Counted from the stretch's first letter, positions 12,460 through 61,246 are shown. The stretch is 64,000 bases of DNA from Patescibacteria group bacterium (GCA_038063415.1 JBBTVD010000006.1:299914-363913); one strand, 5' to 3'. Made by a program: numbers and translations. Notes: generated by a model from the letters alone, not told the origin.

Positions 12460-12525
12460 ATTTTTTAAGCATACCATAGATCTACTGCTTGTTTTGACAA
12501 AAAAAACCCTGCTACAATACAAACT

Positions 12526-14175: not shown

Positions 14176-14183
14176 TATTCCCT

Positions 14184-16488: not shown

Positions 16489-16547
16489 TTCAAACAAAAG
16501 CTTCTTTTGCTATTATAGAGTATAGTTAGAAAAAATGCTTTGTAATT

Positions 16548-41966: not shown

Positions 41967-41975
41967 AGTTCTCCT

Positions 41976-42770: not shown

Positions 42771-42772
42771 AG

Positions 42773-45374: not shown

Positions 45375-46380
45375 ATTTATGTGTCTCCTTTATGAGATTT
45401 TCCAAAACCTTTTTTGCACGACCACTTGCAATTGATTCTTCAGCAAGCGTTATCCCAGAGGTAATATCATCCACTTTTCCAGCAGCATACAATGCAACAG
45501 CCGCGTTAAAGAGAACAATATCACGCTTTGGACCTGCCACTCCAGATAAAATGTCTTGTATCATTTGTGCATTTTCAGGTGCTGTTCCTCCGAGAAGATC
45601 TGTTGAGGGAACCCGAGTGAAGCCATACATTTCAGGACTAATAAATGATTGTTTACTGTTGATTCCGTCTATTGCAAACAGATGCGTTTTGGCTGAGAGA
45701 CTTACCTCATCCATACCATCTTCACTCGTAACCAATACGAGACGTTCATAGGGTAATTTCTTTGCAACTGCGTTCAGTCGTTTTGCAACCATGAGATCGG
45801 GAACTCCTATCAATTGGTTCTTTACTGACGCAGGATTAACAAAAGGCCCCAAGAAATTAAAAATAGTCCGTATGCCAAGTTCTTTTCGCACGGAGGCAAC
45901 ATGCTTCAGTGCTGGATGAAAAGCAGGAGCAAAAAGGAAAACCATTCCTATCTTAGCGAAAACCTCTTCTGCTTGTTGAGGAGTTAATTGGATATGCACT
46001 CCCAATGCTTCAAGGACATCCGCACTACCGCATTTACTACTTGCCGCCCGGTTACCATGTTTGGCAATTTTTATGCCTGCTCCTGCCACGACAAAAGCAA
46101 CTGCTGTTGAGATATTAAAGGTGTTACTGCCATCACCACCGGTACCACAAACATCAAGCGCATCTGGAAGATTTACTGGAAGCATATGTTCTCGCATCAC
46201 GTGAATCAAGCCAAGTATTTCATCTGTTGTCTCACCCTTTATCCGCAATGCAACCAAAATCGCTGCAAGTTGAATAGAACTAATGTCACCGTTTAGCACC
46301 GCGTCAAAAAATTCCTTGGTTTCATCAAGTGTGAGATTCTTATTTTCTATCAATTTGTTTAGTGTCTGTGTGTTATTCAT
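45367..46380 (-). CDS. trpD: Anthranilate phosphoribosyltransferase
   Basis: GTGGDGSNTFNIST motif. Confidence 0.85.
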   Translation of the reverse strand: MNNTQTLNKLIENKNLTLDETKEFFDAVLNGDISSIQLAAILVALRIKGETTDEILGLIHVMREHMLPVNLPDALDVCGTGGDGSNTFNISTAVAFVVAGAGIKIAKHGNRAASSKCGSADVLEALGVHIQLTPQQAEEVFAKIGMVFLFAPAFHPALKHVASVRKELGIRTIFNFLGPFVNPASVKNQLIGVPDLMVAKRLNAVAKKLPYERLVLVTSEDGMDEVSLSAKTHLFAIDGINSKQSFISPEMYGFTRVPSTDLLGGTAPENAQMIQDILSGVAGPKRDIVLFNAAVALYAAGKVDDITSGITLAEESIASGRAKKVLENLIKETHKYA

Positions 46381-46972
46381 GATATAAAAAGTTCTCTAGC
46401 ATTTTCTTCCCTCCCTCGGTCGCAAAAGACTCTGGATGAAATTGTATGCCCTCAATTGGATAGTGTGTATGACGAATCCCCATAATTTCATCGGTATCTT
46501 CAGATCGAGCCGTTATGATTAAATCCTTAGGAAGTGATTTCTCCTCAACGATTAAAGAATGATAACGCATCGTCTGGATATGCTGAGGAAGTCCAGTAAA
46601 AACACCTTTTTTATCATGAACTACCGAACTCGTTTTCCCATGCATTGGCACTTTTGCACGCACGACTTTCCCACCAAAGTAATGCGCTATTCCTTGCATA
46701 CCAAGACACACACCAAGAACCGGCGTTTGTCTGCCAAGCTGCAAGATAACATCCGCACAAACCCCAAAATATGCCTTGTCACTTGGATCGCCTGGTCCCG
46801 GAGAGATAATAATCCTGTCATATGTTCTTTTTTCAATTTCAGCAAGAGTTATCTCATCATTTCGGATAACATCTACGGTAAAATCTTTTTCTTTTTTCAT
46901 TAATAACTCTCCTAGATATTGATAGAGGTTATAGGTAAAAGAATCGTAGTTGTCGATAAGTAAAACTTTCAT
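46373..46972 (-). CDS. trpG: Anthranilate synthase component II (glutamine amidotransferase)
   Basis: GVCLGMQ catalytic Cys motif and HPES motif. Confidence 0.85.
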   Translation of the reverse strand: MKVLLIDNYDSFTYNLYQYLGELLMKKEKDFTVDVIRNDEITLAEIEKRTYDRIIISPGPGDPSDKAYFGVCADVILQLGRQTPVLGVCLGMQGIAHYFGGKVVRAKVPMHGKTSSVVHDKKGVFTGLPQHIQTMRYHSLIVEEKSLPKDLIITARSEDTDEIMGIRHTHYPIEGIQFHPESFATEGGKKMLENFLYHE

Positions 46973-46973
46973 A

Positions 46974-48332
46974 TTATGTACTAAATTGACCTAATACTTT
47001 TTCCATAGCAGCGAGTTTCCTAAGCACTTCTTCATACTCTTTTTCAGCTACAGAATCGTCGACGATTCCTGCACTTGATTGTGTATAGCCATAATTATCA
47101 GAGATGTAAAAGGATCGCAAAGGCAACGCAAAGGTAGCATCACCATTAAATCCAAAATGTCCGATACTTCCTCCATAAGGACCACGGGCATCTGGTTCAT
47201 TCGCATCAATAATTTTTATCGTCTCGACTCGAGGCGTTCCACAAACAGTTGGCATAGGGAAATTGGTTGCAAGGGCTGAAAACATATCTTCTTTTGAATC
47301 AAGCATGCCAACGACATCACTTGAGATATGTTGTAAATGACTAAACCGTCTTGTGGTCATCAGGTCCTTGACTCGTACCGTTCCAAATCGAGAAACTTTC
47401 CCCATATCGCTTCTATGCATGTCAACAATCATCATGTGTTCTGCTCGTTCTTTTGGATCATTGAGCATTTCTCGTGCCAATTTCTGATCTTCTTCTTCTG
47501 TTTTTCCTCGACTGGTGGTACCAGCAAGAGGTCTACTTAATAACTCTCCATCACGAAGAGAAAAAAGTAACTCTGGAGCTGCTCCCAACGTCTTCTTGTT
47601 CCCAAATTTCATAAAATACATAAAAGGAGAAGGATTGACCTGACGTAGCTGTTGATAGACAAGTAGTGGATTACCTGTCACTTCATACTCTGCTTTAAAA
47701 CCAACCTCACACTGAAACGTATTCCCTGCTCGAATATGTTCTTTTACTACAGCAACATCTGCAAAAAATGCTTCTTTTGTTTGTGTACTTCTTAGAAACC
47801 TTGCAGAAAACGATTGTAAAACACTCTCTTTATTGAGTAAATCATGAACAAGGTAGCTACGATCTGTTTCGTAAAAGAAGTAAAATATTTCACTCGTCAC
47901 CTTGTCATAGACAACCCCGTCAGTATAGATTCCAAACATAAACTGATCAAATTGATCATGTACTTTTACCTTTACACCCGACTCCATATAATTTATAGCT
48001 TCATAGCTGAGGTACCCAACAAGACCCCCAGCATACTCACGTGAAAGAACTTGATCTGGCATAAGTTTACGAAGCTCGTAATAGGGATTAGCAACAACAC
48101 TTTTCTCTCCATCAATGGTTAGGGTATTACCTCTCGCAGAAATGCTGTGTTCTGGAGCAAAACCAATGATTGAATAACGAGAATATTTTCCGTCTTCTCC
48201 TAATGATTCTAAGAGAAAGCATGTAGCAAATGCTTGTTCTATTTTTTGAAAGAGTGCAAAAAAATCTACATCTTCTGCAATTTTTTTATACGTTGGTTTT
48301 TGTGGTAATGATAGCTTCTGCATTTTTTTCAT
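46974..48332 (-). CDS. trpE: Anthranilate synthase component I
   Basis: Chorismate-binding C-terminal motifs (GGLVGYLSYE...GAAPELL...). 452 aa. Confidence 0.85.
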   Translation of the reverse strand: MKKMQKLSLPQKPTYKKIAEDVDFFALFQKIEQAFATCFLLESLGEDGKYSRYSIIGFAPEHSISARGNTLTIDGEKSVVANPYYELRKLMPDQVLSREYAGGLVGYLSYEAINYMESGVKVKVHDQFDQFMFGIYTDGVVYDKVTSEIFYFFYETDRSYLVHDLLNKESVLQSFSARFLRSTQTKEAFFADVAVVKEHIRAGNTFQCEVGFKAEYEVTGNPLLVYQQLRQVNPSPFMYFMKFGNKKTLGAAPELLFSLRDGELLSRPLAGTTSRGKTEEEDQKLAREMLNDPKERAEHMMIVDMHRSDMGKVSRFGTVRVKDLMTTRRFSHLQHISSDVVGMLDSKEDMFSALATNFPMPTVCGTPRVETIKIIDANEPDARGPYGGSIGHFGFNGDATFALPLRSFYISDNYGYTQSSAGIVDDSVAEKEYEEVLRKLAAMEKVLGQFST

Positions 48333-48520
48333 AAAAAAACCCTTGTAAACTCCCCAGCAAGAATGCTGCGAAACTTACAAGGGCCTTTGATAAAAGACGG
48401 TACCACCTTGCTTTATTACTCATTCATGACATGCTCCAATCTAATGACCGACACATGTTACTGTCTTATTCGGTTTCGTCTCCGCTGCATTATGTATTTT
48501 GCAAAAGCTCCCCGACTCCA
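48333..48520 (-). ncRNA. Candidate tryptophan T-box riboswitch leader of the trp operon
   Basis: The minus-strand RNA contains AAGGUGGUACCGUC, matching the T-box box AGGGUGGNACCGCG. A candidate specifier loop reads ...GCGUUGGAGUC... with a UGG Trp codon followed by a purine. A terminator hairpin CCCUUGUAAGUUU...GAGUUUACAAGGG plus U7 abuts the trpE ATG. Confidence 0.55.
48336..48383 (-). terminator. Intrinsic terminator (T-box terminator arm) immediately 5' of trpE
   Basis: 9-bp perfect stem CCCUUGUAA/UUACAAGGG followed by UUUUUUU. Confidence 0.55.
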
Positions 48521-48524
48521 ACGC

Positions 48525-48553
48525 ACCGGATCAATGCTCTTTCTGGATAGTAT
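48525..48553 (-). promoter_or_regulatory. Sigma70-like promoter TTGACA-17-TACTAT driving the T-box leader and trp operon
   Basis: Minus strand: TTGACA (plus 48548-48553) and TACTAT (plus 48525-48530). Confidence 0.45.
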
Positions 48554-48584: not shown

Positions 48585-49076
48585 TTAGCGGGATTGAGAA
48601 ATATTGGTAGTGCCTTCTGTTCCACAGGCTTTGATTGTTATAATGTTGTTGGCATCAACAGTTACACTAAAACCAGTTTTTGCTGCGGTATAGGTCGTCC
48701 CACCCAGTGGGTCAATCGGTATACTTTTAAGATATTTTGCAAGTGGCGTTGTAAGATCCACACATGCTGCCGCAGCCACACTACAACCACCTGTTGAGAT
48801 GGTACACCCTGACGCCCCTGTACCAAGCTGTGTCTCCGCCATGCTTGTCGTAAGACCCGTTGGAAGACTTCCTTTATTATCAACGATATATTGATGAATT
48901 CCTGTAAGAATTGTCTCTACATCACTGGTACGACGAGCATCACGAGAATCCTTTAAGCGCTGTACTGGATTAAGTGCGACAAAAACAGTAACCGCTAATG
49001 CTGAAATAATAACAATAACAATGAGAAGCTCAATGAGGGTAAAACCTTTCTGATTATATGAAAAAAATCTCTTCAT
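48585..49076 (-). CDS. pilA: Type IV pilin (class III signal, G|FTLIE)
   Basis: MKRFFSYNQKGFTLIELLIVIVIISALAV. Four Cys arranged as two candidate disulfide pairs. 163 aa. Confidence 0.75.
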   Translation of the reverse strand: MKRFFSYNQKGFTLIELLIVIVIISALAVTVFVALNPVQRLKDSRDARRTSDVETILTGIHQYIVDNKGSLPTGLTTSMAETQLGTGASGCTISTGGCSVAAAACVDLTTPLAKYLKSIPIDPLGGTTYTAAKTGFSVTVDANNIITIKACGTEGTTNISQSR

Positions 49077-49134
49077 TTTGTAACTATATAGTTATCGTAG
49101 AAGGTTTCACAATGATTGTCAAGAGATACTTTCA

Positions 49135-49617
49135 TTAGAGTTCTTTCCAGCTAGTAATAATAAAAGAAGTACCCTTATTCCCGACTACTTCAATTGTTCT
49201 TTTATAAGTTGTACTTGTGGTTGTCGCAGTCACGGTCCACGTACTATCTACTTTTGAAATTGTTATAGTACAGGTTCCTTCAGGTCGAGTAATACTTCCT
49301 CCAACATAGGAATCGCTTGCTCGTACTTTCAAAAGTGCATCTTCCATGCAGCCCTCGACGAACCCTAATGTATCTTCACCCTTTGATAAGGCATACGAGG
49401 ACTGGGCTTCTCCAATTGCCAAGAGGCTTACGGTCGTGGCAATTGCCATAGTCACAGCTGAAATAATGATGACCGTAATAAGAGCAATATATCCCCCGGA
49501 AGAAAAGTTATTGTCAGGCTGGCTTGTCCAGCATCTTTTTCTTATGATTCTGGACACACTTCGTTTGCCAGAATGACGAAATATGAAAGACAATTTTATT
49601 CTTAATTCTTTATGCAT
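49135..49617 (-). CDS. Minor pilin-like protein with a repeat-derived N-terminal extension
   Basis: Hydrophobic GGYIALITVIIISAVTMAIA segment. The N-terminal IFRHSGKRSVSRIIRKR is encoded by the mini-element at 49518-49578. Confidence 0.45.
   Translation of the reverse strand: MHKELRIKLSFIFRHSGKRSVSRIIRKRCWTSQPDNNFSSGGYIALITVIIISAVTMAIATTVSLLAIGEAQSSYALSKGEDTLGFVEGCMEDALLKVRASDSYVGGSITRPEGTCTITISKVDSTWTVTATTTSTTYKRTIEVVGNKGTSFIITSWKEL
49518..49578. repeat. Palindromic mini-element copies (GGCTTGTCCAGCATC partial plus GATTCTGGACACAC...CCAGAATGACG)
   Basis: Shares the ...CATTCTGG/CCAGAATGACG arms. Lies in the 5' coding region of the pilin-like gene. Confidence 0.6.
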
Positions 49618-49621
49618 ACTT

Positions 49622-50140
49622 TTAATTACTCCTCACTTCCGCGCTTCCTTCAATCGTCGTTGACGCATTGTATTCCTGTCGAGTCCCCGCTCCAGCATAA
49701 TTTGCATTTAGGGTAAACGTAAACTGGATATGTTTTGTCTTGTTATCTGAGGACGTGTAATTGGTAAAGGTGAAATTAGAGACAGTGGTATCAGGAGAGT
49801 TAAGATTGACGGTACTGCCGGTTCCTTGTGTGATACGGACGTTGCCAGAAGAGAGGTCAATGACTGTAGGATTGGTTGCACTCGTCGCTGTCGTTAGAGA
49901 AATAGCCGTTGACGAAACGGAGTTAATACCAGTGGCATTCCGAATTTCGTATTTAATCCGTTCACTGATAAATCGGGCATTGGCAAATACTTCTTGCTGT
50001 GTCGTACTCTTTGCGCCCCCTTCAATAATATTCCAGGCAAATGGGATGAGTGTTGTCAACATGATCGTCAAAATTGCGACATAGATAATAATCTCGATAT
50101 ACGTAAAACCTCTCTGAAATTTTTGTCTTTTTCTTTTCAT
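49622..50140 (-). CDS. Pseudopilin / minor pilin (G|FTYIE)
   Basis: MKRKRQKFQRGFTYIEIIIYVAILTIM prepilin-type N-terminus. Confidence 0.6.
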   Translation of the reverse strand: MKRKRQKFQRGFTYIEIIIYVAILTIMLTTLIPFAWNIIEGGAKSTTQQEVFANARFISERIKYEIRNATGINSVSSTAISLTTATSATNPTVIDLSSGNVRITQGTGSTVNLNSPDTTVSNFTFTNYTSSDNKTKHIQFTFTLNANYAGAGTRQEYNASTTIEGSAEVRSN

Positions 50141-50142
50141 AG

Positions 50143-50770
50143 TTATTGCGGTTTAAGTACCCCTGTCCAGACATATCCATCATCGGTTGCTGCTCCTGCT
50201 GCTGCCCATGCTCCTGGGTCTTCACTCCCGGCTGTTGCTTTCTTGAAGTAGACTACGCCAGCTGAAGCATCATTCCCTGACGTGGTACTATTTGAACCTG
50301 CTGTTGTGTATCCACTGGGGACAGTGATGCTTGTGTAATCATTGTTCTTCCCAAAGATCGGGAGGACAACGGCATCAGCAGTAATCGTTGTTACTGCTGG
50401 TGGATTGGGACTGGAGGTATTACTAAAGGTTGTTGGGACGCCAGAATCTGTTTCAAATGGTGTCGTTGTATTGACACTTCTGAAGATTGAGGTTCCCCAG
50501 ATGGTAGTTGAGCTACTTACTGAGGAGGATGTCCAGGCAAAGGTGCTATCTCCTGACTGGAGGACACGATAGCCAATGTAGATGCGACCAAACCCTGCTG
50601 CACTTGCCAATTCCTGCTGGGTTATAGTGCCGGGTGGCGTGATTGTCTTGGTGTTGGTAAGAGTATACCACCAGAAGACGGCGACGTCTCCTGCTTGCCA
50701 ACCTGACGGGAGGGTGAAGTTCCCAGTGGTTGGATTACTTCCTGTTGCACTCACGTTTGCGATATACGTG
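50143..50770. repeat. Large direct repeat copy 1 (about 615 bp, near-identical to 51387-52014)
   Basis: Nucleotide-identical except for 2-3 positions. The plus-strand ghost ORFs 50342-50572 and 51586-51816 are identical. Confidence 0.9.
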
Positions 50771-51384
50771 ATCCCTGCTGGTGCTGTTGGCGTTGGGGTG
50801 CTTGTCGGGGTGGGTGTACTGGTTGGTCCTACCGTGGGAGTCGGGGTGGGTATTGCAATTTCTGCTTTCCAGTTGGTGAAATAGGTATTCAATGCCACTG
50901 AATTATTTCTTGTAGGACTAACATTCCATGAAACAGTCGATGTCACTTTTTTGGTGTCAGAATCAGCCGTCCCCCCGCTTGCGACAATATTACCACTGCC
51001 ATCCCGCTGGACATCACTAATGGCAATAACACGAGTATATTTACTTAACGTATTATTGCTCCCACCAAATGCCCAGATATTGGAAGCATTACGGATAATG
51101 CCTGTCCCGGTTGTGTTGGTCAAATTACTAAAGTTTTGATTTTTGATAGAACGCGCTGCCTCCAAACCTTCTGCTGCATATTGATTAGCAATGGTCTGCT
51201 CTTCACCTAATCTGTTGGCATCAAAACCCTGCAGTACGACAAAGATTGCTCCACTCGAAAAGACAACAAACATCCCTGCCGAAAGAATAAGTTCAAGGAT
51301 GGAAAAACCCTGTTGCAAAACAAAGCTTTTGCCAGAATGACGTACCAATGAAATGATTTTTTCCGTTATCTGATGTACTTTCAT
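50143..51384 (-). CDS. Large pilin-like protein (G|FSILE) with TP-linker and Thr/Ser-rich C-terminal domain
   Basis: Class III signal ...LQQGFSILELI. The 3' ~615 bp are near-identical to those of the next gene. Partial mini-element at 51332-51342 (RHSGK). Confidence 0.55.
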   Translation of the reverse strand: MKVHQITEKIISLVRHSGKSFVLQQGFSILELILSAGMFVVFSSGAIFVVLQGFDANRLGEEQTIANQYAAEGLEAARSIKNQNFSNLTNTTGTGIIRNASNIWAFGGSNNTLSKYTRVIAISDVQRDGSGNIVASGGTADSDTKKVTSTVSWNVSPTRNNSVALNTYFTNWKAEIAIPTPTPTVGPTSTPTPTSTPTPTAPAGITYIANVSATGSNPTTGNFTLPSGWQAGDVAVFWWYTLTNTKTITPPGTITQQELASAAGFGRIYIGYRVLQSGDSTFAWTSSSVSSSTTIWGTSIFRSVNTTTPFETDSGVPTTFSNTSSPNPPAVTTITADAVVLPIFGKNNDYTSITVPSGYTTAGSNSTTSGNDASAGVVYFKKATAGSEDPGAWAAAGAATDDGYVWTGVLKPQ

Positions 51385-51386
51385 AA

Positions 51387-52014
51387 TTACTGAGGTTTAA
51401 GTACCCCCGTCCAGACATATCCATCATCCGTTGCTGCTCCTGCTGCTGCCCATGCTCCTGGGTCTTCACTCCCGGCTGTTGCTTTCTTGAAGTAGACTAC
51501 GCCAGCTGAAGCATCATTCCCTGACGTGGTACTATTTGAACCTGCTGTTGTGTATCCACTGGGGACAGTGATGCTTGTGTAATCATTGTTCTTCCCAAAG
51601 ATCGGGAGGACAACGGCATCAGCAGTAATCGTTGTTACTGCTGGTGGATTGGGACTGGAGGTATTACTAAAGGTTGTTGGGACGCCAGAATCTGTTTCAA
51701 ATGGTGTCGTTGTATTGACACTTCTGAAGATTGAGGTTCCCCAGATGGTAGTTGAGCTACTTACTGAGGAGGATGTCCAGGCAAAGGTGCTATCTCCTGA
51801 CTGGAGGACACGATAGCCAATGTAGATGCGACCAAACCCTGCTGCACTTGCCAATTCCTGCTGGGTTATAGTGCCGGGTGGCGTGATTGTCTTGGTGTTG
51901 GTAAGAGTATACCACCAGAAGACGGCGACGTCTCCTGCTTGCCAACCTGACGGGAGGGTGAAGTTCCCAGTGGTTGGATTACTTCCTGTGGTACTTACAT
52001 TGGCAATGTAGGTA
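51387..52014. repeat. Large direct repeat copy 2
   Basis: See copy 1. The period between copies is 1244 bp. Confidence 0.9.
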
Positions 52015-52676
52015 ATTCCAGATGGTGCTGTTGTTGGCGTGGGGGTTGGGGTTGGCGTATTTGTCGGGGTGGGTGTACTGGTTGGTGTGGGAGTGCTCGT
52101 TGGCGTGGGACCACCAGAGGTGGGTGTTGGGGTAGCAGTCGGAGCAATACCGACAAAAGAGGCTATTACGCCTTGTGGATTAACCGTAAGCGTCCTTGTG
52201 GTATCTCCTCCACTCACGGTAATCGTTGGCGTTACACTTGGCACACCAGTTGCTCGAGTAAAAATAACATCACTTAATCCACTAACCGCTACATTCGCGT
52301 TAACTGACGATGTCTCATCAAAAGCAGTATTTCGCAAAGCATACGAGTCTCCCTGAAAAAGAATGACCTGATTGGTTCCCAGGTGCACTCCCCAACTACC
52401 ATTTTGCCGCCCAGACATCGCATATATCTGTGCTTTACGAAGTTGCCCTGTGAGCATGTCAGTCGTGTTTGCCACCGCATTTTGCGTAAAGAAGCGAGCA
52501 AAAAAAGGAACTGAAGAAGCCGAAAGTAAAGCGACAAGCCCAACGATCAGGATACATTCAATAAAAGTAAAACCGTGATCCCATTTGACATGCTGAACTT
52601 GTTTCAGCATCTTAAAAACATCTATTGATTTAGAATGATCCCGAAACAAATTCGGGATAACAAGCTTCTGATTCAT
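51387..52676 (-). CDS. Large pilin-like protein (G|FTFIE) with TP-linker and the same Thr/Ser-rich C-terminal domain
   Basis: Class III signal ...WDHGFTFIECI. PTPT-repeat linker. C-terminal about 215 aa identical to the 50143 gene. Confidence 0.55.
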   Translation of the reverse strand: MNQKLVIPNLFRDHSKSIDVFKMLKQVQHVKWDHGFTFIECILIVGLVALLSASSVPFFARFFTQNAVANTTDMLTGQLRKAQIYAMSGRQNGSWGVHLGTNQVILFQGDSYALRNTAFDETSSVNANVAVSGLSDVIFTRATGVPSVTPTITVSGGDTTRTLTVNPQGVIASFVGIAPTATPTPTSGGPTPTSTPTPTSTPTPTNTPTPTPTPTTAPSGITYIANVSTTGSNPTTGNFTLPSGWQAGDVAVFWWYTLTNTKTITPPGTITQQELASAAGFGRIYIGYRVLQSGDSTFAWTSSSVSSSTTIWGTSIFRSVNTTTPFETDSGVPTTFSNTSSPNPPAVTTITADAVVLPIFGKNNDYTSITVPSGYTTAGSNSTTSGNDASAGVVYFKKATAGSEDPGAWAAAGAATDDGYVWTGVLKPQ

Positions 52677-52679
52677 AAC

Positions 52680-53765
52680 TCATTTCTTAATATTCCCGGT
52701 CAACTCATAGATTGGTGAGATAATTGCCATCGCGACAAAAGCAACAATAAGCCCAATAAAAATTAACATAATTGGTTCAAAGATTGTTGAGATATTCTTG
52801 GTCGCGTCATCAACCTCCTCTTCAAAAAAATCTGCAAGATAGGCAAATGTTTCATCCAGTTTACCTGTTGTTTCTCCAACAGAGAGCATCTTGACAGCAA
52901 TAAGCGGGATCTTCGGATACTTTCCTGTTTCTAATTCTTTCGCCAGAGACTTCCCTCGATCAATTGAACTCAACAAATTTTCTCCATATTTTTGAAAGAC
53001 TAAATTCTGTGTCATATGTGATTCTATTTCCATAGCTGTGTTAATCGGCATGCCACTTTTAAGCATTATCCCCATGTTACGAGAAAAAGAAGAGAGTTCA
53101 GTATTTTGGATGATGTTGCCCAAGATAGGAAGAGAGAGCAAGAATCGATGCCACAAGGGCTTCACAACGGACAACTGTGTCACGAGTCTTCCAGTGACTA
53201 AAACAACAAATAACCAAATGACTACAATAACACCAAAGTTCTTCATAAGTTCTGCAAACCATAACAAAAGTTGGGTAGTCCAAGGGAGCTCGACATCAAA
53301 TCCTTTAAATAATTCTAGTAACTGTGGCAAGACAAAAAGACTTATCCCGATACCAACAATCATAGCCCCCGTAAAAACGATTATTGGATATAAGAGAGCA
53401 CCTTGTATCTTCTTACGAAACGCATAATCTTTACCCAATTGTTCTCCCAAGTAAGCAAAGCTCTGATCAAGAGTACCTGAATCTTCTCCAATCTTGATAA
53501 TATTTACATAAAAAGCATCAAAGACTCTTGAAAACTTTCCGAGGGCATTGGCAAGTGTTTGACCATTTTCAATACTTTTGGCAACACCCTCAAGCATATC
53601 CCGAAAAGTAGCTGATCTAGTTTGTGAAGCTAAAATATGAAGAGCATCAATAATGGTAATGCCACTCTTGAGCATAATCCCCATATGCTTGGTAAAGAGC
53701 AGTTTGTCAAGAAAGCTCACATGCGAAAGCAATGGAATTTGGGCAGAAAAATTCATAAATATCAC
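52680..53765 (-). CDS. pilC: Type IV pilus platform protein PilC (GspF family)
   Basis: Two T2SS-F repeats with three TM segments. Confidence 0.8.
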   Translation of the reverse strand: MIFMNFSAQIPLLSHVSFLDKLLFTKHMGIMLKSGITIIDALHILASQTRSATFRDMLEGVAKSIENGQTLANALGKFSRVFDAFYVNIIKIGEDSGTLDQSFAYLGEQLGKDYAFRKKIQGALLYPIIVFTGAMIVGIGISLFVLPQLLELFKGFDVELPWTTQLLLWFAELMKNFGVIVVIWLFVVLVTGRLVTQLSVVKPLWHRFLLSLPILGNIIQNTELSSFSRNMGIMLKSGMPINTAMEIESHMTQNLVFQKYGENLLSSIDRGKSLAKELETGKYPKIPLIAVKMLSVGETTGKLDETFAYLADFFEEEVDDATKNISTIFEPIMLIFIGLIVAFVAMAIISPIYELTGNIKK

Positions 53766-55441
53766 TCTTTGGTTACTCTCAATACCTCTTCAATGGTCGT
53801 TTCTCCTGCTTTGACTTTTTCAAGACCATCTTCCTCCATTGTTTTCATACCATTTTTAATGGCAATTGCTTTGATAGTTGCTGCATCTTTTTTGTTAATA
53901 ATTGCCTGCTTGATCTCATCTGTTACTTCCATTACCTCAAAGACCCCTATCCGACCTTCATAAGAACTATTATGGCAAATATCACAACCTTTTCCGCGAT
54001 AGAGACGAATTGAGGGTAGAGTACCAAATATTTTTTGCGTTAACGGTTCACCGATAAAGCCGACTACTTTCTCCCGAGGTAAGTCTTCACTAATACGACA
54101 AACGGTATGAATTTTACGGATAAGCCGCTGACCAATAAGCACATTAACCGTTGATGCAATCAAAAATGGTTCGATACCCATTTCAAAAAGTCTCGGAATA
54201 GCTGTGGCAGCATCATTAGTATGGAGTGTTGAGAGCACTAAATGTCCAGTCATCGCAGAATTGGTGGCAATTTCTGCTGTCTCGCTGTCACGAATTTCAC
54301 CAACGAGGATAATATTGGGATCTTGACGTAAGATACTCCTGAGCCCTGTCGCAAAGGTAAAATCTGTCTTGGTATTTACCTGCATTTGATTGACACCTTC
54401 AATGTCATACTCAATCGGATCTTCAATAGTCATAATATTGACATCACGATTATTGAGCAGTTTTAAAACGGCATACATCGTGGTTGTCTTTCCACTTCCT
54501 GTTGGACCTGTTGAAAGGAGCATGCCAAACGGCTTTTTGTATGCTCTCTCAACCTTTTGTAAGTCTTCCTGAGAGAAACCAAGTGTCAAAAGAGAAATTT
54601 GCCTCGCACGTTCAGAGAGCAGACGCATAACTACCTTTTCTCCGCGACGAACTGGCACTGTTGATACACGAAGATCTAGCTGTTGTTCGTCAAGGATAAA
54701 CTCTATTTTTCCGTCTTGCGGAGCTTGATGTTCATCGGTTCGCAACCGAGCAAGCACCTTAATGCGCGTAACAATTTCAGGATACATTTCTTTGGGTAAT
54801 TGAATAATGTCATGGAGTACACCATCTATACGAAATCTCACAAGAGAAACTTCTGTTTCTGGCTCAAAATGGATATCTGAAGCATTGTTGTGCGCAGCAT
54901 AGGAAATAATGGTTTCAACAATTTTAATAATTGGGGGCTCAGCATTCTTTCCACCTTTCTTGGAAGCTTCTTCCAGGTTCTCCTTCATGATATCTGCAAA
55001 TGCTTTACCAATATCTTTAAGATATAAGACGAGTGCATTCTCTATATCTCGTGGAGTAGCATAATACAAAACAAGCGGCATGCCTATTTTACTGGACAAA
55101 AAAGTAATAATTGCAGGATTGGCCGGATTACTCATAGCAACATGTAATCCCTGCTCATCTTTTTTGAAAGCAATGATTTTTTCTTTTCGAGCAATAAGCT
55201 CTGGGATAATCATTAAAATTTCTTGAGGAATTTTAAGGTTTATTAACTGGATAAACGGTACTGAAAAAATTTGTGCAGTGAGCTTCCCTAAGTTACCGTC
55301 GTCAATCAAATTTCTGTCAAGCAAAATCTCTCCAAGTGGCTTTTGTTGCACGGAAGCATCCCGGAAAGCTTGTGTTAACTGCTGCTCATCGATAACCTGT
55401 AATTCTTTTAAGGCAGCATAGAGTGATTCATTGTTACGCAT
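53762..55441 (-). CDS. pilB: Type IV pilus assembly ATPase PilB (GspE family)
   Basis: Walker A GPTGSGKTTT, Asp/His boxes and a tetracysteine motif (CRISPR... C..C). ATG probably at 55441 (MRNNESL). Confidence 0.85.
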   Translation of the reverse strand: MRNNESLYAALKELQVIDEQQLTQAFRDASVQQKPLGEILLDRNLIDDGNLGKLTAQIFSVPFIQLINLKIPQEILMIIPELIARKEKIIAFKKDEQGLHVAMSNPANPAIITFLSSKIGMPLVLYYATPRDIENALVLYLKDIGKAFADIMKENLEEASKKGGKNAEPPIIKIVETIISYAAHNNASDIHFEPETEVSLVRFRIDGVLHDIIQLPKEMYPEIVTRIKVLARLRTDEHQAPQDGKIEFILDEQQLDLRVSTVPVRRGEKVVMRLLSERARQISLLTLGFSQEDLQKVERAYKKPFGMLLSTGPTGSGKTTTMYAVLKLLNNRDVNIMTIEDPIEYDIEGVNQMQVNTKTDFTFATGLRSILRQDPNIILVGEIRDSETAEIATNSAMTGHLVLSTLHTNDAATAIPRLFEMGIEPFLIASTVNVLIGQRLIRKIHTVCRISEDLPREKVVGFIGEPLTQKIFGTLPSIRLYRGKGCDICHNSSYEGRIGVFEVMEVTDEIKQAIINKKDAATIKAIAIKNGMKTMEEDGLEKVKAGETTIEEVLRVTKE

Positions 55442-55473
55442 ATGTATTATTATGGTCTGTTTTGCATTGATGA

Positions 55474-55863
55474 TCAAGAGGAAAGAGGTGCAGGAGCACT
55501 TGCAAGGAGTGCATTTACTTTTTCGATCAACGAATCCAGAGACAGATCACTTTTTACCACAAAATCATTTGCTCCCATCTGAATACTTTTTTCAATATCT
55601 TCCTTTTGTCCCAAGTTTGATGCGACAATCACCGGGATTGGCTTCCAGGCAGGATTTGCTTTTATTTCAGCTAGCGTCGCAAACCCATCTTTGACCGGCA
55701 TAATGAGATCAAGAACAATAAGATCAGGAGTGAAACTTTGAAGTGCGGTAATTGCCTCTTGACCATCCCTAGCCATTTGGACTTCAAAACCCGCTTTGGT
55801 AAGCTTTACTCGGTAGGCATTTGCCAAAAAATTATCATCTTCTGCAACAAGGATCTTTTTCAT
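55474..55863 (-). CDS. Stand-alone response-regulator receiver (CheY-like)
   Basis: ILVAEDD, LIVLDLIMPVKDG and a conserved K-site. 129 aa. Confidence 0.75.
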   Translation of the reverse strand: MKKILVAEDDNFLANAYRVKLTKAGFEVQMARDGQEAITALQSFTPDLIVLDLIMPVKDGFATLAEIKANPAWKPIPVIVASNLGQKEDIEKSIQMGANDFVVKSDLSLDSLIEKVNALLASAPAPLSS

Positions 55864-56297
55864 TGTGTTGTTGTTGGCACCACTGGAGTATTCCCAGGGT
55901 CAACAGAATCTTCTCCTTTAATAAAATTCCGTATCATCTCAATAATTTGATCCAATCGATACTCAGCCTTAAGAATATATTTTTTTGCTCCAAGTCCAAG
56001 CATCGTGTTTACTTTATCAGGACTTGCAGAATTACTTACAACAAGGACCGGAATATTTTCCCATTTGGGATTTGCCTTGAGTTGCTGCATGAAAGCCAAA
56101 CCGTTCATATCTTTGAGATAATAATCCAGCCATACTGCATCCGGAAGTTCATCGAGGTTGTTGAGATAGTCAACAGCTTGCTGCCCACTGGCACAGGAGA
56201 GCACATCCATGCCGCTCAATTTCAACTTTTTGGTAATCGCTTGTAGTAAAAGAATTTCGTCTTCGACTACCATGATTGTTGGATTTTGTGCACTCAT
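55860..56297 (-). CDS. Stand-alone response-regulator receiver (CheY-like)
   Basis: IMVVEDE...AVWLDYYL. 145 aa. ATGA overlap with the downstream receiver. Confidence 0.7.
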   Translation of the reverse strand: MSAQNPTIMVVEDEILLLQAITKKLKLSGMDVLSCASGQQAVDYLNNLDELPDAVWLDYYLKDMNGLAFMQQLKANPKWENIPVLVVSNSASPDKVNTMLGLGAKKYILKAEYRLDQIIEMIRNFIKGEDSVDPGNTPVVPTTTQ

Positions 56298-56337
56298 ATC
56301 CTAGGACTTCTCTTTAGTTTTACAGGAAATTGACCTA

Positions 56338-57675
56338 TCAGTCAAGCGTCACTTCTCCTTTTTTTGCTGGCGTGCCAGCTGCTGGCAAACTAAACCAAAA
56401 TGTTGTACCTTTTCCTTCTTCTGAGGCAAACCAAATCTTCCCTTGGGATGATTCCAAAATGATCCTAACCAAATACAAGCCAAGACCTGTCCCAACGGTT
56501 TCTTTCTGTGCGGCATTATCTGCTCTGAAAAATTTTTCAAATAATCTTCCTTGTTGCAGCTTTGGGATACCCAAACCAGTATCGGTTATTTGAGAAATAA
56601 TCTCTTCTCCTTTTCGTGAGATAAAGACGTTCACGTCTCCTCCTTTTTCTGTATATTTGATCGCGTTTGTCAATAAATTGAGATATACCTGCCTAATTAA
56701 CCGTGGATCAATATTTATTTTGGGGAGATTTTCATTTACACTCACGACACAATGGAGTTCTTTTTTCAAAATAAGCTGTTCAAGCTCTTTTAAGACTCCT
56801 TCAACCATTTCTTTCAAATCCGTCGGCTTGGGATCAATAATAATTCTTCCTGATTCAATCCTTGAAATATTCAAAAGTGAATTAACCAAATCAATCATGC
56901 GTTCAATAGAATCATAAATATTCCTGGTAAAATCTTGTTGTTCATCGTTAAGTTTCCCCGCATCTCCTTGCAAAAGCATTTCAGAGAACCATCGCACCGC
57001 AGATAATGGCGTCCGCAGTTGATGTGAAGCGAGTGAGATAAATTCAGTCTTCATCCGATCAATCGCTTTTTGCTCAGTGACATCTCGAATGATCGCAATA
57101 ACCCCTACAATTTTTTCACCAAGAATGACAGGGTTTGCACTAAAATGAACAAAAGCTACGTCTCCATTTTGTTGATGATGAGTATAAACATTTTCTACTT
57201 TCTTTCCTGTTTGGAGAACAATACTCATTGGACGTTGTTCTACAGGAACTTCTTTATCTTCTTTGTCATACAGCTGAAATGAGTCAAAGACTGTTTTATT
57301 CTTTATAGCAGACAATTGTAATCCAAGAATTTCTTCTGCACCTTTATTCATCACGATAATATGAGCCTGCGCATCTGTCACAAGTACCCCATCCCCGATA
57401 CTGGCAATCACGGCTTCATCTTTCACTTTTTCTATTTCTACTTCTCCTACCTTTTGTGCAAGTTGTGAAGAATATTCTTTGAGCTTTTCGTTTTGTTCAT
57501 TAAGCTCTTTTGAACTAAGTTCAAGTGAATGCTCAATTAATATATGATCCTGTTCGTAGCCTTCATAGGTGGAATTAACTGCTTGTAAAAACAGCTCCCA
57601 AGCAGCTTTATCCGTAGGAAGACTCTGGGTATTCCCAAAAAATTTTGTGCGTTGTCGTTCAAGTGTTGTATGCAT
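56338..57675 (-). CDS. PAS-domain sensor histidine kinase
   Basis: H-box FISLASHQLRTPLSA and the N, G1 (DTGLGI) and G2 (GTGLGLY) boxes. PAS region upstream. Confidence 0.8.
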   Translation of the reverse strand: MHTTLERQRTKFFGNTQSLPTDKAAWELFLQAVNSTYEGYEQDHILIEHSLELSSKELNEQNEKLKEYSSQLAQKVGEVEIEKVKDEAVIASIGDGVLVTDAQAHIIVMNKGAEEILGLQLSAIKNKTVFDSFQLYDKEDKEVPVEQRPMSIVLQTGKKVENVYTHHQQNGDVAFVHFSANPVILGEKIVGVIAIIRDVTEQKAIDRMKTEFISLASHQLRTPLSAVRWFSEMLLQGDAGKLNDEQQDFTRNIYDSIERMIDLVNSLLNISRIESGRIIIDPKPTDLKEMVEGVLKELEQLILKKELHCVVSVNENLPKINIDPRLIRQVYLNLLTNAIKYTEKGGDVNVFISRKGEEIISQITDTGLGIPKLQQGRLFEKFFRADNAAQKETVGTGLGLYLVRIILESSQGKIWFASEEGKGTTFWFSLPAAGTPAKKGEVTLD

Positions 57676-58823
57676 TAGACTTCTTTGAAGGTAGTAATCG
57701 TCATTGTCTGATTATGCAATTGACATTGTTTTTCAGTAGCTGCTGTCGGACAAATCTCACCATACGAATAAAACCCTGCAAGAACAGTCTGCTCGCCGAC
57801 AATTGATCTAACTGCCTCAATTTCTTCAACAGTTCGCTCTTTTAAGACAAGCTTTCTCCCGATACAACTAATAAGAATTGCAAGGTCTGGTTTTGCTCCG
57901 ACAAGAGACTCAATACTCATACTCGCTGCTTGTTGCGCTCCGTCAATGAGTCGTTCAAAGTTTGCTTTCATAAGTTGTGCTTTGATGCCCTCTGGCATAT
58001 CGCCTGCAAAAATCATACTCTGTTCTGTCTCATCAATATTTAACAACGTGCGAACCACCTGAACTTGTTTCCCGCTTTTATCAGTAACAGAAAGACTCAA
58101 TGGGAAAAGCAAGCCACTCGCCGGAAGTTCTTTTGCCAACTCACCCAAATATTCTTTATAGAGAGTAAGAGCGTTCTTGCCATCTAACTCATACAAAACA
58201 TTATTTTTTGCTTTGGTGATCGTTCGCTGAGGACCAAAGGGGTCCCAGCCACCAAGCGATCCATAGCCGACTTTAAGCGAATTACCATAGAACCCAAGCA
58301 CAATAACTCTCCCCTCAGCCGGTGCCTCATCAAGCCCGACGAGCGTCAGTTTAAAATCAGAACCATCACCCACTAATCCTCCAGTAACCGAAACATTTGG
58401 AGGCAAAACCTCCCCTAAACCTTGAACCAGAGGAGTGCCATTGACCTTTAATCCATCAGAGAAAACCATCACATGGGTCAGTCCTTCGTGTGGCAGAGCG
58501 CTTGCAAGCTTTTTTCCAACTTCCAAACTCTGTTCAGGATCAGTAATACTCTCTTTAGCAAATTGCAGCGTCGTTTTCTCAAAATAGACAGCTGTTACAA
58601 TAAGTGAGTTATCAAGCACCTCGTCACTGCAAATTTCTCCCGCTGTACTGGCACTCAGGATGTGAGCTTCAGGATACATAGCATGAATTTTATCAAAATG
58701 TGTCGCGTCAGAGAGAAGCGTCCGAGCACCAAAGATAAGGACTAGTTGTGGCTTTTCAGCAAATTCAGAACGAAGTACTACCCAGCCTGTTTGTTGCGTC
58801 CATTTTTTTTGACTAACTTTCAT
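57675..58823 (-). CDS. FIST-domain sensor protein
   Basis: 382 aa. FIST N and C architecture. Overlaps the HK start. Confidence 0.55.
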   Translation of the reverse strand: MKVSQKKWTQQTGWVVLRSEFAEKPQLVLIFGARTLLSDATHFDKIHAMYPEAHILSASTAGEICSDEVLDNSLIVTAVYFEKTTLQFAKESITDPEQSLEVGKKLASALPHEGLTHVMVFSDGLKVNGTPLVQGLGEVLPPNVSVTGGLVGDGSDFKLTLVGLDEAPAEGRVIVLGFYGNSLKVGYGSLGGWDPFGPQRTITKAKNNVLYELDGKNALTLYKEYLGELAKELPASGLLFPLSLSVTDKSGKQVQVVRTLLNIDETEQSMIFAGDMPEGIKAQLMKANFERLIDGAQQAASMSIESLVGAKPDLAILISCIGRKLVLKERTVEEIEAVRSIVGEQTVLAGFYSYGEICPTAATEKQCQLHNQTMTITTFKEV

Positions 58824-58834
58824 GAGATATCTTC

Positions 58835-58864
58835 AGTATCCACAAAGCTCGATGCTTTTGTCAA
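58835..58864 (-). promoter_or_regulatory. Sigma70-like promoter TTGACA-18-GATACT, 11 nt upstream of the FIST ATG (head of the pilus operon)
   Basis: Minus strand: TTGACA (plus 58859-58864) and GATACT (plus 58835-58840). Confidence 0.4.
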
Positions 58865-58972: not shown

Positions 58973-59353
58973 TTATGGTTGATAGGTAGTAACAAGTTGA
59001 GGAACATTTGAACTCTCTTTAGTCCCAAAACTTACTTGACCAGCTTGACCTTCATTCGTCTTTTTGACTAACCATCCGTAATTTTGGTTTGAGCCGCTCA
59101 TAAAAGATTGAACATCTGAGGTAACATCAAACTCAACTACTCCACTTTGATTATTCATAATAGTAGTCGTAGCTGTAGCAGCAGAACCTGAATTTGTTTT
59201 TGCATAAATTGAATTGCCTGATTCAACAATACTAGCATTTGCTCCTTGAGGCACTTGCCATTCTAAACTTAATGGATTTGTCAGACTCGCTTCACTATTA
59301 TCCGTCCCATCATGTTGAGGATTAAATTGGCCAATCAGCTCTTGCTTGAGGAA
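58973..59353 (-). pseudogene. Start-less C-terminal gene remnant (secreted-protein-like, Thr/Ser/Asn-rich)
   Basis: Open frame from the stop at 59354-59356 with no ATG. The track start is a GTG. Ends ...VTTYQP. Confidence 0.25.
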
Positions 59354-59512: not shown

Positions 59513-61246
59513 TCACTCAGCTTTGATAAAAATAACTGCATCAGTAGTGCCAATTGGACTATTTAATACTTGCATCTTTACTGAATCTTTATAATTATTA
59601 GCCACATAATTTGCTAATTTTTCAGCAATCTCATTATTTTCTGGACTCAAAATTGTTACCTTATTTGCCTTGATTATTGCTAAATCATTTTCAAAATCTT
59701 CAGCTTTGAAGTTATATATTTTTTTATCTCTATTTATAAGAAACTCAAATCTTCCATCACTAACAATATTAGAAGAAACATAGACCTCATTAATTGGACT
59801 TCTATTTATAATATTAACAATATTTAGAACAATCGCTCCATTAAATTTATAATTATAGTCACTAATTGTCTGATTAAAATATAAATTCCAATTAATCATC
59901 ATTATGAAAAAGGATATAAAAATTATTGTAGCTGTATAAATTCCTTTACCCATTCCATCCAAAAAAGGTTTTATTTCATTTAATGCAAATGCAATCACGA
60001 AATAAACGATAGGTATAATTCCTGCTATACGTAAGGTATTGGGATGACCTAAGCCGTAATAATGACCTTCTGGTATCCTCTCAAGAGAGAGAATATCATT
60101 GAGAATTGGAGAGATTGCTATAATCAATAAAATTAGCAAAAGGCGTCTGTTTCGCTTGAAAAGAAATGGAATTCCAATCAAAAATATTAAAAACGTTGCA
60201 AAATCAAAAAAGGTAGTACTTGATGGATTTCTTCTTAGATCAGGATCACCATTAGGCCTATTGTCCCAAGTGCCTGTTGGTAAAAATAAATTTGTAAGCC
60301 GAAATATGCTTCCACCCAATTCCGTAACTACCTCTCCTGTGGGTAGACCCTGATTAAATAAAGAAAGAACCTTTGCTCTCTCCATTATCTGGTCTGCATG
60401 TATTATGCTGTAGCTAAAAAGAGGAATTGCAACAACACATATCCCTACAATAAGCAATCCAACTTTTTGCAGACCCTTCTTGAAATTCTTTGCATGTCTA
60501 ATTGCGATAAAAATACTAAGTGCAAAAATTATTAATGCAAAGGTTCTGAATCCTACATAGGTATATAGTCCTGCTCCTAAGGACAATCCAATCGCAGCAT
60601 AATATCTTAAATTATTTTTTTTCCAAGCTAAAAAAAGTGGGATCATGGTTACTATCTGAAAAAAAAGAGAAGGAGTAATTTCAAAAGCAATCCTTGATAC
60701 TATAATAAGTGGATAAGAGAGCATCATAAGAAGAGAAGAAAAAAGCGAAACAGTTTTATTAAAAAATAATCTTAATAAAATATAGAAGGCTGCAACGCTG
60801 AGTGCTCCAAATATGATACTAGGCAAACGAAGAGCAGCGAGTGTTCTTCCAACCAACTCAATGCTTAATCCTGTTAGATATAATAATGGTGTTGGGTGTC
60901 CATAATTAACATCTACAAAGGGGACATACTCAGATGAAGCAAAAACAAGCTCACTTGCTTTTGCTACAGTAATCTCATCTAAATGAACTCCGGGAGTTAT
61001 GACATCAATTTTATATAAATAAATAGCGAATGCAGCTATAAAGAGACAGCACGCTAAAAAAATATCAAATATATGTTTTTTCAGGAATGGTAATAATTTT
61101 TTAGAGTATAGCACCCAACCTGCAAGTAATAAGACACTTATATAATGAATCATTATTGCAAAAATTGGGAAATGTTGCGTTATAGAAAAAAGAAGAAAAA
61201 GAAATATATTTATTGCGAACAAACTAATAGAAAGTATTTTTACCAT
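59513..61246 (-). CDS. Polytopic membrane glycosyltransferase, GT-C superfamily (PMT/ArnT-like), fourth copy in the window
   Basis: 577 aa with more than 11 TM segments. An extracytoplasmic loop follows TM1 (HLDEITVAKASELVFASSEY...). Confidence 0.5.
   Translation of the reverse strand: MVKILSISLFAINIFLFLLFSITQHFPIFAIMIHYISVLLLAGWVLYSKKLLPFLKKHIFDIFLACCLFIAAFAIYLYKIDVITPGVHLDEITVAKASELVFASSEYVPFVDVNYGHPTPLLYLTGLSIELVGRTLAALRLPSIIFGALSVAAFYILLRLFFNKTVSLFSSLLMMLSYPLIIVSRIAFEITPSLFFQIVTMIPLFLAWKKNNLRYYAAIGLSLGAGLYTYVGFRTFALIIFALSIFIAIRHAKNFKKGLQKVGLLIVGICVVAIPLFSYSIIHADQIMERAKVLSLFNQGLPTGEVVTELGGSIFRLTNLFLPTGTWDNRPNGDPDLRRNPSSTTFFDFATFLIFLIGIPFLFKRNRRLLLILLIIAISPILNDILSLERIPEGHYYGLGHPNTLRIAGIIPIVYFVIAFALNEIKPFLDGMGKGIYTATIIFISFFIMMINWNLYFNQTISDYNYKFNGAIVLNIVNIINRSPINEVYVSSNIVSDGRFEFLINRDKKIYNFKAEDFENDLAIIKANKVTILSPENNEIAEKLANYVANNYKDSVKMQVLNSPIGTTDAVIFIKAE

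Follow-up and report, generated by a model that had tools for sequence, protein, structure and literature searches.

We consider it fairly probable that the gene cluster at positions 48585-58864 (minus strand) of a 64,000-nt stretch of DNA (GCA_038063415.1 JBBTVD010000006.1:299914-363913; this whole stretch is hereafter called the window) is the type IV pilus operon of a Patescibacteria (candidate phyla radiation, CPR) bacterium, with a built-in branched two-component system that gates the pilus. The source is a metagenome-assembled genome of an uncultured ultrasmall bacterium from Hainich groundwater, labelled Patescibacteria group bacterium by NCBI, and ENA and Logan assemblies of Hainich groundwater contain a protein identical to the FIST protein encoded at the head of the cluster. 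The few Patescibacteria that have been cultivated depend on type IV pili for attaching to their hosts and for motility (PMC11665869, PMC11623550). Under the scheme that we propose, FIST and, separately, the sensor of a second kinase (HK649) would set kinase activity; the kinases HK445 and HK649 would in turn set the phosphorylation state of two stand-alone receivers (REC1 and REC2), and these would most likely work post-translationally, on the PilB motor or the PilC platform, with one of them perhaps being the effector while the other serves as a phosphate sink or as an antagonist. In this way the receivers would gate PilB-driven pilus extension, while a tip complex of four minor pilins would display two phage-tail-like domains, presumably for host-cell attachment.

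Listing of the open reading frames (ORFs) combined with Pfam and NCBIfam searches gave eleven minus-strand genes that read in one direction. The first encodes FIST, a stand-alone 382-aa sensor protein with FIST_N and FIST_C domains (57675-58823; Pfam E = 8e-44 and 7e-35). It is followed by HK445, which according to Pfam is a cytoplasmic PAS-HisKA-HATPase kinase (56338-57675) and whose N-terminal segment of ~62 aa (57490-57675) co-occurs with FIST, and by two stand-alone receivers, also assigned by Pfam, REC1 (55860-56297, 145 aa) and REC2 (55474-55863, 129 aa). Next come a PilB-type extension ATPase of 559 aa with an MshEN N-domain and a T2SSE domain (53762-55441; Pfam E = 1e-127) and a PilC protein of 358 aa (52680-53756; Pfam E = 3e-55, and NCBIfam), whose two T2SSF repeats mark it as a platform protein of the PilC/GspF type. 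The remaining five genes encode pilins, namely, the modular minor pilins A (51387-52676, G↓FTFIE) and B (50143-51384, G↓FSILE), both made of a pilin domain, a Pro/Thr linker and the same C-terminal module; a minor pilin of 172 aa with an N_methyl motif (49622-50140, G↓FTYIE); a PilX-like minor pilin, recognised by orthologue alignment, in a 160-aa ORF (49135-49617); and a major pilin candidate of 163 aa (48585-49076, KG↓FTLIELLIV), which gives the best N_methyl match (E = 3e-9). The class III signal G↓F(T/S)xxE is thus present in four of the five pilins, the fifth being the PilX-like one without Glu5.

The FIST and HK445 genes overlap by 1 nt and those of REC1 and REC2 by 4 nt; PilB and PilC are separated by 5 nt and the pilin genes by 2-4 nt, and the widest gaps are those between HK445 and REC1 (40 nt), between REC2 and PilB (32 nt, counted from the PilB ATG) and ahead of the major pilin (58 nt). 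For PilB we rejected a TTG start at 55477, since relatives align from the ATG at 55441 and public gene calls agree with it, and for PilC a GTG start at 53765, since relatives and public gene calls use the ATG. The real start of minor pilin A is probably Met23 (52610), and that of the PilX-like pilin probably lies downstream of the first ATG, as its orthologues align only from residue 37-42. The original prediction, made from the sequence of the window, of a minus-strand array of FIST, a histidine kinase, two receivers, pilB, pilC and five pilin-like genes with tight junctions therefore holds, both for the eleven genes and, with mostly 1-5-nt overlaps or gaps, for their spacing.

To place the cluster among its relatives, we compared it with six CPR loci (L168-L173) that have a PilB 61-74% identical to that of the window and that were picked for their long contigs, not at random. 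The order kinase (PAS-HisKA), one or two stand-alone receivers, PilB, PilC and pilins is kept in all six, and in most of them the pilin array ends with a major pilin of ~162-171 aa. Every gene of the cluster but FIST has one-to-one orthologues in relatives according to BLAST. Those of REC1 are 57-89% identical and adjoin PilB in L168, L170, L171 and L095 (a locus that also carries FIST, described below); those of REC2 are 62-80% identical and lie directly upstream of PilB in L168-L171. PilC orthologues are 52-58% identical, those of the four minor pilins 47-76% across the pilin domains (55-76% for the 172-aa minor pilin), and those of the major pilin, always the last of the array, 63-90%. The sensor parts of the kinases vary among these relatives, being dCache-HAMP-PAS, HAMP-PAS, CHASE3-PAS or PAS alone, and a FIST gene is present in none of the six loci. 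We considered a 376-aa gene between the kinase and the receivers of L168 as a hidden FIST, and rejected it, since it encodes a multi-pass membrane protein with no FIST similarity.

There is thus a CPR clade whose PilB/PilC/pilin operons begin with a PAS-HisKA kinase, followed by one or two stand-alone receivers, and in which the sensor differs between genomes. This comparison of gene order, which had been proposed as a check, supports the original prediction of a dedicated His-Asp module tied to the pilus without CheA or a methyl-accepting chemotaxis protein (MCP). However, its account of the signalling module has to be revised in two respects. FIST was taken as part of the pilus unit, but it is missing from all six PilB relatives and, as shown below, PilB lies near few FIST loci; and the proposed phosphorelay is better described as a branched two-component system, with one kinase class, two receivers and no Hpt.

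REC1 and REC2 have an intact acidic pocket, phospho-acceptor Asp, Ser and Lys, and consist of a receiver domain only, with no output domain. Their presumed action on the motor is read from synteny and from one gene fusion, which is found in L086, a locus whose FIST is 69% identical to that of the window. There, FIST-HK-REC-REC is followed by two opposite-strand CBS genes, a further stand-alone receiver and a REC::PilB fusion (L086 11666-13405), in which an N-terminal receiver replaces MshEN. In the manner of a Rosetta stone, this fusion is a hint that receiver phosphorylation acts on the motor. Single-domain, CheY-like receivers that influence PilB have a precedent (PMC11656802), and further reports on CheY-like proteins and pili include PMC11973254, PMC13507683 and bioRxiv 10.1101/2021.06.11.447907. 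Control by cyclic di-GMP (c-di-GMP) through the MshEN domain of PilB was considered as well, and we judge it unlikely, since its c-di-GMP motif is degenerate, scoring 23.5 bits (cut-off 38) and, as we read the sequence, having Pro in place of the Arg that precedes the motif LG; the degenerate motif is consistent with an N-domain that serves another regulatory input.

Alternatively, the receivers might control pilus gene expression, via a transcription or sigma factor or an unlinked DNA-binding regulator, with the kinase setting pilin levels in the manner of PilS-PilR. The control of pilin transcription by PilS/PilR is the classical two-component model, stand-alone receivers can serve as relay intermediates, and the major pilin has its own promoter-like site, which could be the regulated target. 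We nevertheless hold this to be unlikely. The receivers contain no DNA-binding or sigma-54 domain, no Hpt or second regulator is encoded in the cluster, the receivers of all six relatives lie directly upstream of PilB and not of a pilin gene, and the REC::PilB fusion of L086 points to the motor.

We next consider the FIST end of the cluster, for which about 170 FIST-centred loci were surveyed in a scripted analysis; they came from collections of genomes and metagenomes, each of which contributed no more than its 80 best loci. A kinase-like gene lies directly downstream of FIST in 33 of 33 CPR-like loci and in 107 of 121 loci from other phyla, while PilB is found within 10 kb on the same strand in 4 of the 21 CPR-like loci with enough sequence and in 1 of 61 others. 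Since none of the six PilB relatives carries FIST and few FIST loci have PilB nearby, FIST is a separate input module fixed to a kinase, and the conserved pilus unit consists of the kinase, the receivers, PilB, PilC and the pilins. FIST would accordingly represent an input that was grafted onto the pilus kinase in this lineage.

The N-terminal segment of HK445 is the likely point of contact. An iterative search detected this segment of ~62 aa in 153 of the 154 kinase-like ORFs directly downstream of FIST, as against 2 of the 77 other kinase-like ORFs in the same loci. It always stands at the extreme N-terminus, is spread over many phyla (about 150 loci, L004-L167), belongs to no Pfam family and has the consensus MHsLLkRQLKR.fG....iP.Ew..Fl.AVndAY..fD.DR.LLERSLELSSqELleaN. 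In L168-L173, the six loci without FIST, the search did not detect it in the pilus kinases. The segment is probably a FIST docking site.

How such a segment came to sit on a pilus kinase is illustrated by L095, where the two kinds of kinase are separate. The order there is FIST, a kinase with the N-terminal segment (HK_a), REC, REC, a binding protein, a second kinase (HK_b, 4HB-HAMP-PAS), two ORFs, REC1, REC2, PilB and PilC. The core of HK445 is 60% identical to the pilus-linked HK_b and 32% to the FIST-linked HK_a, whereas its N-terminal segment is 49% identical to that of HK_a. Because its core resembles one and its N-terminal segment the other of these two kinases, HK445 is a chimera, in which a FIST-coupling head of ~62 aa is joined to the PAS body of a pilus-type kinase with its dimerization and histidine phosphotransfer (DHp) and catalytic and ATP-binding domains. 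REC1, too, shares 89% identity with the receiver beside PilB in L095, but no more than 47% with receivers beside FIST.

These identities also bear on the possibility that FIST-HK-REC-REC is a self-contained cassette with its target elsewhere, which merely happens to lie beside the pilus genes. In a number of CPR loci, L006, L089, L093 and L098 among them, FIST-HK-REC-REC does stand with no pil genes within 8-10 kb, and in L086 the two opposite-strand CBS genes split the cassette from the pil genes. On the other hand, REC1, REC2 and the HK445 core are orthologous to the pilus-linked and not to the FIST-linked set (REC1 89% versus at most 47%, core 60% versus 32%), and HK-REC-REC-PilB is kept in all six FIST-less relatives; we therefore regard mere neighbourhood as very unlikely.

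A second kinase, HK649 (61404-63353, minus strand, 649 aa), has the Pfam architecture HAMP-PAS-HisKA-HATPase and lies outside the span originally flagged, 2.6 kb upstream of the HK445 operon. It is a membrane kinase of the pilus-linked clade, 64% identical to the pil-operon head kinase of L168, to which it is orthologous, and 75% identical to a kinase of L085. A PMT_2 glycosyltransferase (59513-61246) and a 93-aa CBM96 fragment (58973-59254) are encoded between it and the operon. Residues of the DHp domain set the partner specificity of histidine kinases, and the DHp helix near the phospho-His, SHQLRTPLSAxxWFSEML, is almost identical in HK445, HK649 and all pilus-linked kinases but differs in HK_a; over the DHp domain, 51-63 of 76 residues are identical to the pilus kinases, compared with 32 of 75 for HK_a, the kinase that is linked to FIST in L095. 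Since these specificity helices are almost identical, HK445 and HK649 probably both phosphorylate REC1 and REC2.

As for what FIST might sense, a parallel is offered by NosP-NahK/NosK, the nitric-oxide and heme signalling systems of Pseudomonas, Vibrio, Legionella and Burkholderia, where a stand-alone FIST_N+FIST_C protein is likewise encoded directly upstream of a kinase without a membrane sensor, and where NosP-type FIST controls the neighbouring kinase, which phosphorylates a neighbouring receiver protein (PMC12570481, PMC8846402). By analogy, the FIST of the window would bind a small ligand and modulate HK445 via the N-terminal segment. However, it is distant from NosP and belongs to a much more conserved subfamily with a specific N-terminal kinase segment, and the output of NosP-NahK is a c-di-GMP enzyme or HptB, whereas that of the window would be two domain-less receivers beside PilB. 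The protein scores 133.5 bits with near_NosP_CTERM (cut-off 400), and by sequence the pair in the window falls outside the NosP-NahK pair (NF041558 NosP, NF041832 NahK/ErcS). Many CPR lineages have a FIST that is 64-83% identical to that of the window, and the FIST proteins of other phyla are 50-58% identical to it. For a CPR protein this conservation is unusual, amounting to 64-67% across Kaiser-, Gottesman- and Daviesbacteria and Paceibacterota; the other phyla in the 50-58% range are Proteobacteria, Bacteroidota, Acidobacteriota, Chloroflexota and Planctomycetota. The AlphaFold2 (AF2) model of FIST has a predicted local distance difference test score (pLDDT) of 83, and its nearest solved fold is that of the eukaryotic FBXO22; neither the FIST protein nor its profile had a relevant match among PDB sequences, and no solved bacterial FIST structure turned up. 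The residues H54, H117, C320, C367 and H370 are invariant and are partly clustered in a low-confidence loop of the model. It is speculation that these His and Cys residues bind a cofactor, a metal or a ligand.

Turning to the pilus machinery itself, PilB scores 528.7 bits with the NCBIfam model PilB (cut-off 675.65) and 527.2 with GspE, both below the equivalog cut-offs, so that its assignment is at the family level. In minor pilins A and B the pilin part (residues ~25-175) is orthologous to pilins of the relatives, and is followed by the Pro/Thr linker and the C-terminal module. The two copies of the module in the assembly (copy 1, 51390-52034; copy 2, 50146-50790) are near-identical, the last ~600 nt of the two genes differing by four mismatches. 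This all-beta module of ~213 aa is modelled by AF2 as an independent fold (213 aa, pLDDT 93.6). It belongs to no Pfam family, and Foldseek against the PDB returned noise only, with template modelling (TM) scores of at most 0.27. Against BFVD, however, it gave 82 viral matches at E <= 1e-3 with TM scores up to 0.85, including minor tail proteins of mycobacteriophages.

At the sequence level the module is rare. A tblastn search of 50,697 phage genomes gave no match, and 16 homologues were found in a set of 5.8 billion proteins. Some of these, from Daviesbacteria and Microgenomates, form part of pilins of the same two types, and others stand alone; one of the latter, 61% identical, is encoded in a phage-like contig (L174) with small co-directional genes and endolysin-type PHROGs. 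The phage link of the module thus appears at the level of the predicted fold and in one phage-like contig. The counterparts of A and B in relatives have Laminin_G_3-type modules or no module at all, and A and B are modular pilins with an exchangeable tip domain, probably for binding. Modular pilins of this kind are known from Streptococcus sanguinis (PilB with vWA, PilC with a lectin), where a displayed module is likewise grafted onto a pilin domain (PMC8179133, PMC9934059); the module of the window differs in having no Pfam or PDB match, a phage minor-tail fold and two near-identical tandem copies.

The modules also help in deciding whether the machine serves mainly for DNA uptake, or is a secretion pseudopilus, with the two-component system controlling competence. 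CPR bacteria depend on scavenged nucleotides, PilB scores almost equally as GspE and PilB and reaches 260 bits with ComGA (cut-off 300), several pilins match ComG or Gsp models weakly, and PilT is absent from the cluster. But phage-tail-fold modules on two minor pilins, with Laminin_G_3 in the relatives, are easier to reconcile with adhesion than with the binding of DNA, neither the genes of the cluster nor the 58 Pfam-scanned ORFs of the window showed a ComEA- or ComEC-type domain, and saccharibacterial pili with the same layout of PilB, PilC and five pilins mediate host binding and twitching (PMC11623550). A role in competence or secretion thus seems to us distinctly unlikely.

We then scanned 16.5 kb for sigma-70-like promoters and for terminators. 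The site from which the original prediction had the whole cluster transcribed, P1 (58835-58864, TTGACA-18-GATACT), lies 11 nt ahead of the FIST ATG and matches at 10 of 12 positions, but it is one of four sites with this joint top score, and equally good sites precede the major pilin gene (P2, 49094-49122, TTGACA-17-TACGAT) and the trp leader (P3, 48547-48575, TTGACA-17-TGnTACTAT, beginning 9 nt past the stop codon of the last pilin), so that P1 is not the only promoter-like site. P1, P2 and P3 are three of the four best matches; all are on the minus strand, in the direction of the genes, and fall within the three widest gaps between them; it is only this placement, and not the number of sites, that is suggestive of promoters. 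At the position equivalent to P3, L168 has a 12/12 consensus promoter. No credible terminator was found 3' of the last pilin gene, as had been predicted. Three weak minus-strand terminators inside coding regions were dismissed, since the total of 16 compares with 11.7 +/- 3.1 in shuffled sequence.

Beyond the last pilin gene the same strand carries a T-box-like Trp leader (48335-48543) with a short Stem I, followed by trpE-G-D-C-F-B-A and trpS (40947-48332). At the gathering threshold, Rfam found no family in the whole window, the T-box included. A relaxed search gave the T-box (RF00230) with 24.4 bits (gathering score 93, E = 0.0018), with most of Stem I missing. The T-box sequence AAGGUGGUACCG lies at 48398-48409 and overlaps the 5' side of a terminator, a 54-nt hairpin with a U-tract (48335-48388) directly adjoining the trpE start (the leader as a whole has z = -3.8), and a candidate UGG specifier (48518-48520) stands within the terminal loop of a short hairpin. 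The leader of L168 (L168 16700-16990) is homologous, with compensatory changes in the Stem I helix and an identical loop, which is thin covariation as two sequences are compared. The T-box bulge is UGGU in the window and UGGC in L168, which would imply different tRNA discriminator bases; a tRNA scan found none in the window, so the discriminator base of tRNA-Trp could not be compared with the bulge. Because Rfam is empty at its gathering threshold, the T-box call rests on the sub-threshold match together with manual and comparative evidence, which support a real but atypical T-box. The originally predicted T-box thus has its T-box sequence, its terminator and a homologue, but a score far under the gathering threshold.

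The original prediction also had the pilus and trp operons contiguous and read-through from one into the other possible. The two are adjacent, and the trp genes are confirmed, but the adjacency is local synteny only, with a separate promoter-like site (P3) ahead of the trp leader; a read-through transcript, though physically possible, would meet the T-box terminator. Functional coupling of pilus and tryptophan genes by read-through into the leader could draw on the lack of a terminator between the pilin stop (48585) and the leader, and on the same juxtaposition of pilin and leader in L168. Yet P3 begins 9 nt past the pilin stop and is a perfect consensus in L168, any read-through transcript would run into the T-box terminator, L168 has DUF3182 and trpS but no trpEGDCFBA after its trp-type leader, and in L170 and L171 the genes that follow the major pilin are unrelated ones. 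We consider such coupling extremely improbable. Since L168 lacks trpEGDCFBA and L170 and L171 carry unrelated genes at this place, the adjacency reads as shallow local synteny without functional coupling, with trp as a separate unit, probably under T-box control. The DUF3182 gene of L168 in place of the trp genes suggests that the pathway was gained or lost at this spot.

A complete trpEGDCFBA with trpS behind one T-box was observed here in a CPR genome, the CPR group being usually described as lacking amino-acid biosynthesis. The leader resembles the actinobacterial ileS-type T-boxes, in which a short Stem I without the distal tRNA-elbow platform is likewise combined with a conserved T-box sequence (PMC7583486). 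However, these act on translation, whereas the leader of the window ends in a strong intrinsic terminator abutting the start codon. Transcriptional T-boxes generally need a long Stem I (reviewed in PMC7583486); the Trp leader of the window may act on transcription despite its short Stem I.

Several points weigh against the scheme that we propose for the pilus operon. Co-transcription from FIST to the pilins is inferred from gene spacing, and the promoter-like sites as a whole are at the shuffled expectation (41 found, 39.6 expected). The six PilB relatives, as noted, are no random sample. The receivers, being stand-alone, could feed an unlinked target or a relay, and the common DHp residues of HK445 and HK649 hint at common partners without proving them. 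The FIST input is lineage-specific and, with PilB near only 4 of 21 CPR-like FIST loci, could be recent and unselected. Its score with the NCBIfam NosP equivalog NF041558 (40.8 bits) is so far under the cut-off of 450 that we rejected FIST as a NosP orthologue, and to our knowledge CPR bacteria are not expected to make heme. Lastly, among the 58 scanned ORFs of the window Pfam found no PilT or PilD and identified no PilM, none of the three is in the cluster, and PilO (5142-5762, plus strand; Pfam) lies 43 kb from the pil genes.

The PilO gene is part of a plus-strand cluster (4531-7557) that also contains a probable PilN without a Pfam match (4531-5145), a 142-aa ORF and a 457-aa Big_13/fn3 protein, with no PilM evident upstream. 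The region 9208-19270 is a run of membrane glycosyltransferases (three PMT_2, GT87, GT4 and DUF2298), suggesting extensive surface glycosylation, and a nickel superoxide dismutase gene was found at 27800-28216 (minus strand).

Each ingredient of the proposed system is known elsewhere. Histidine kinase and response regulator are encoded within the pil cluster in PilS-PilR, as in the window; however, the receivers of the window (129-145 aa) have no sigma-54 activator or DNA-binding domain, and the sensor is not the pilin-sensing membrane domain of PilS. In Pil-Chp of Pseudomonas (PilG/PilH) and Tax/Pix of Synechocystis (PixG/PixH), two stand-alone or CheY-like receivers, possibly antagonistic, connect a kinase to the activity or localisation of the pilus motor, as we propose for the window (PMC11656802; see also PMC10519157, PMC11181946 and bioRxiv 10.1101/2021.06.11.447907). 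The cluster of the window differs from these in that Pfam found no CheA, CheW, MCP or methylation enzyme in it, the kinase is a classical HisKA, the receivers have no PATAN domains, and the regulators share an operon with pilB and pilC. The output-less single- and tandem-receiver proteins EmvR and DrdR of Xanthomonas are reportedly tied to PilB or PilT and to pilus-dependent motility (PMC11973254, PMC13507683); but they are orphan genes of a proteobacterium with c-di-GMP circuitry, whereas the receivers of the window are operon partners of PilB in a CPR bacterium. The pilus loci of the saccharibacterium TM7x likewise consist of PilB, PilC and about five pilins, including a PilX-like one without the canonical signal (PMC11623550), and the cluster of the window differs from them in locally lacking PilT, PilM and PilD. 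Neither PMC11623550 nor the Patescibacteria perspective mentions a response regulator, a histidine kinase or a two-component system. Our literature searches turned up no account of how the reduced CPR genomes regulate their pili, be it by a two-component system or by FIST, nothing relevant on FIST with pili or CPR, and no description of a cassette of FIST and a 62-aa kinase adaptor. What appears to be new is the operon-level cassette of kinase, two receivers and PilB in CPR, with an exchangeable sensor and a FIST-plus-adaptor graft.

A broader reading, which we put forward only tentatively as a possibility, concerns the CPR clade as a whole. In it, output-less receivers would dock on PilB, the sensor end would be exchangeable, the cassette of FIST and 62-aa adaptor would have been grafted on the pilus kinase, and the tip domains would be common to the epibiont and to phages of the same community, serving cell-surface recognition in both. 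If this is true, one type of module lets epibiont and phage alike recognise a cell surface. With their phage-tail-like module, the minor pilins also point to a way in which host specificity could be exchanged. Beyond CPR, the nearly exclusive pairing of this FIST subfamily with the 62-aa segment across many phyla predicts a contact surface for the control of kinases by FIST. For the epibionts themselves, the cassette of kinase, two receivers and PilB names candidates for a signal path from the environment or the host to the pilus, one that is testable with purified proteins from uncultured organisms.

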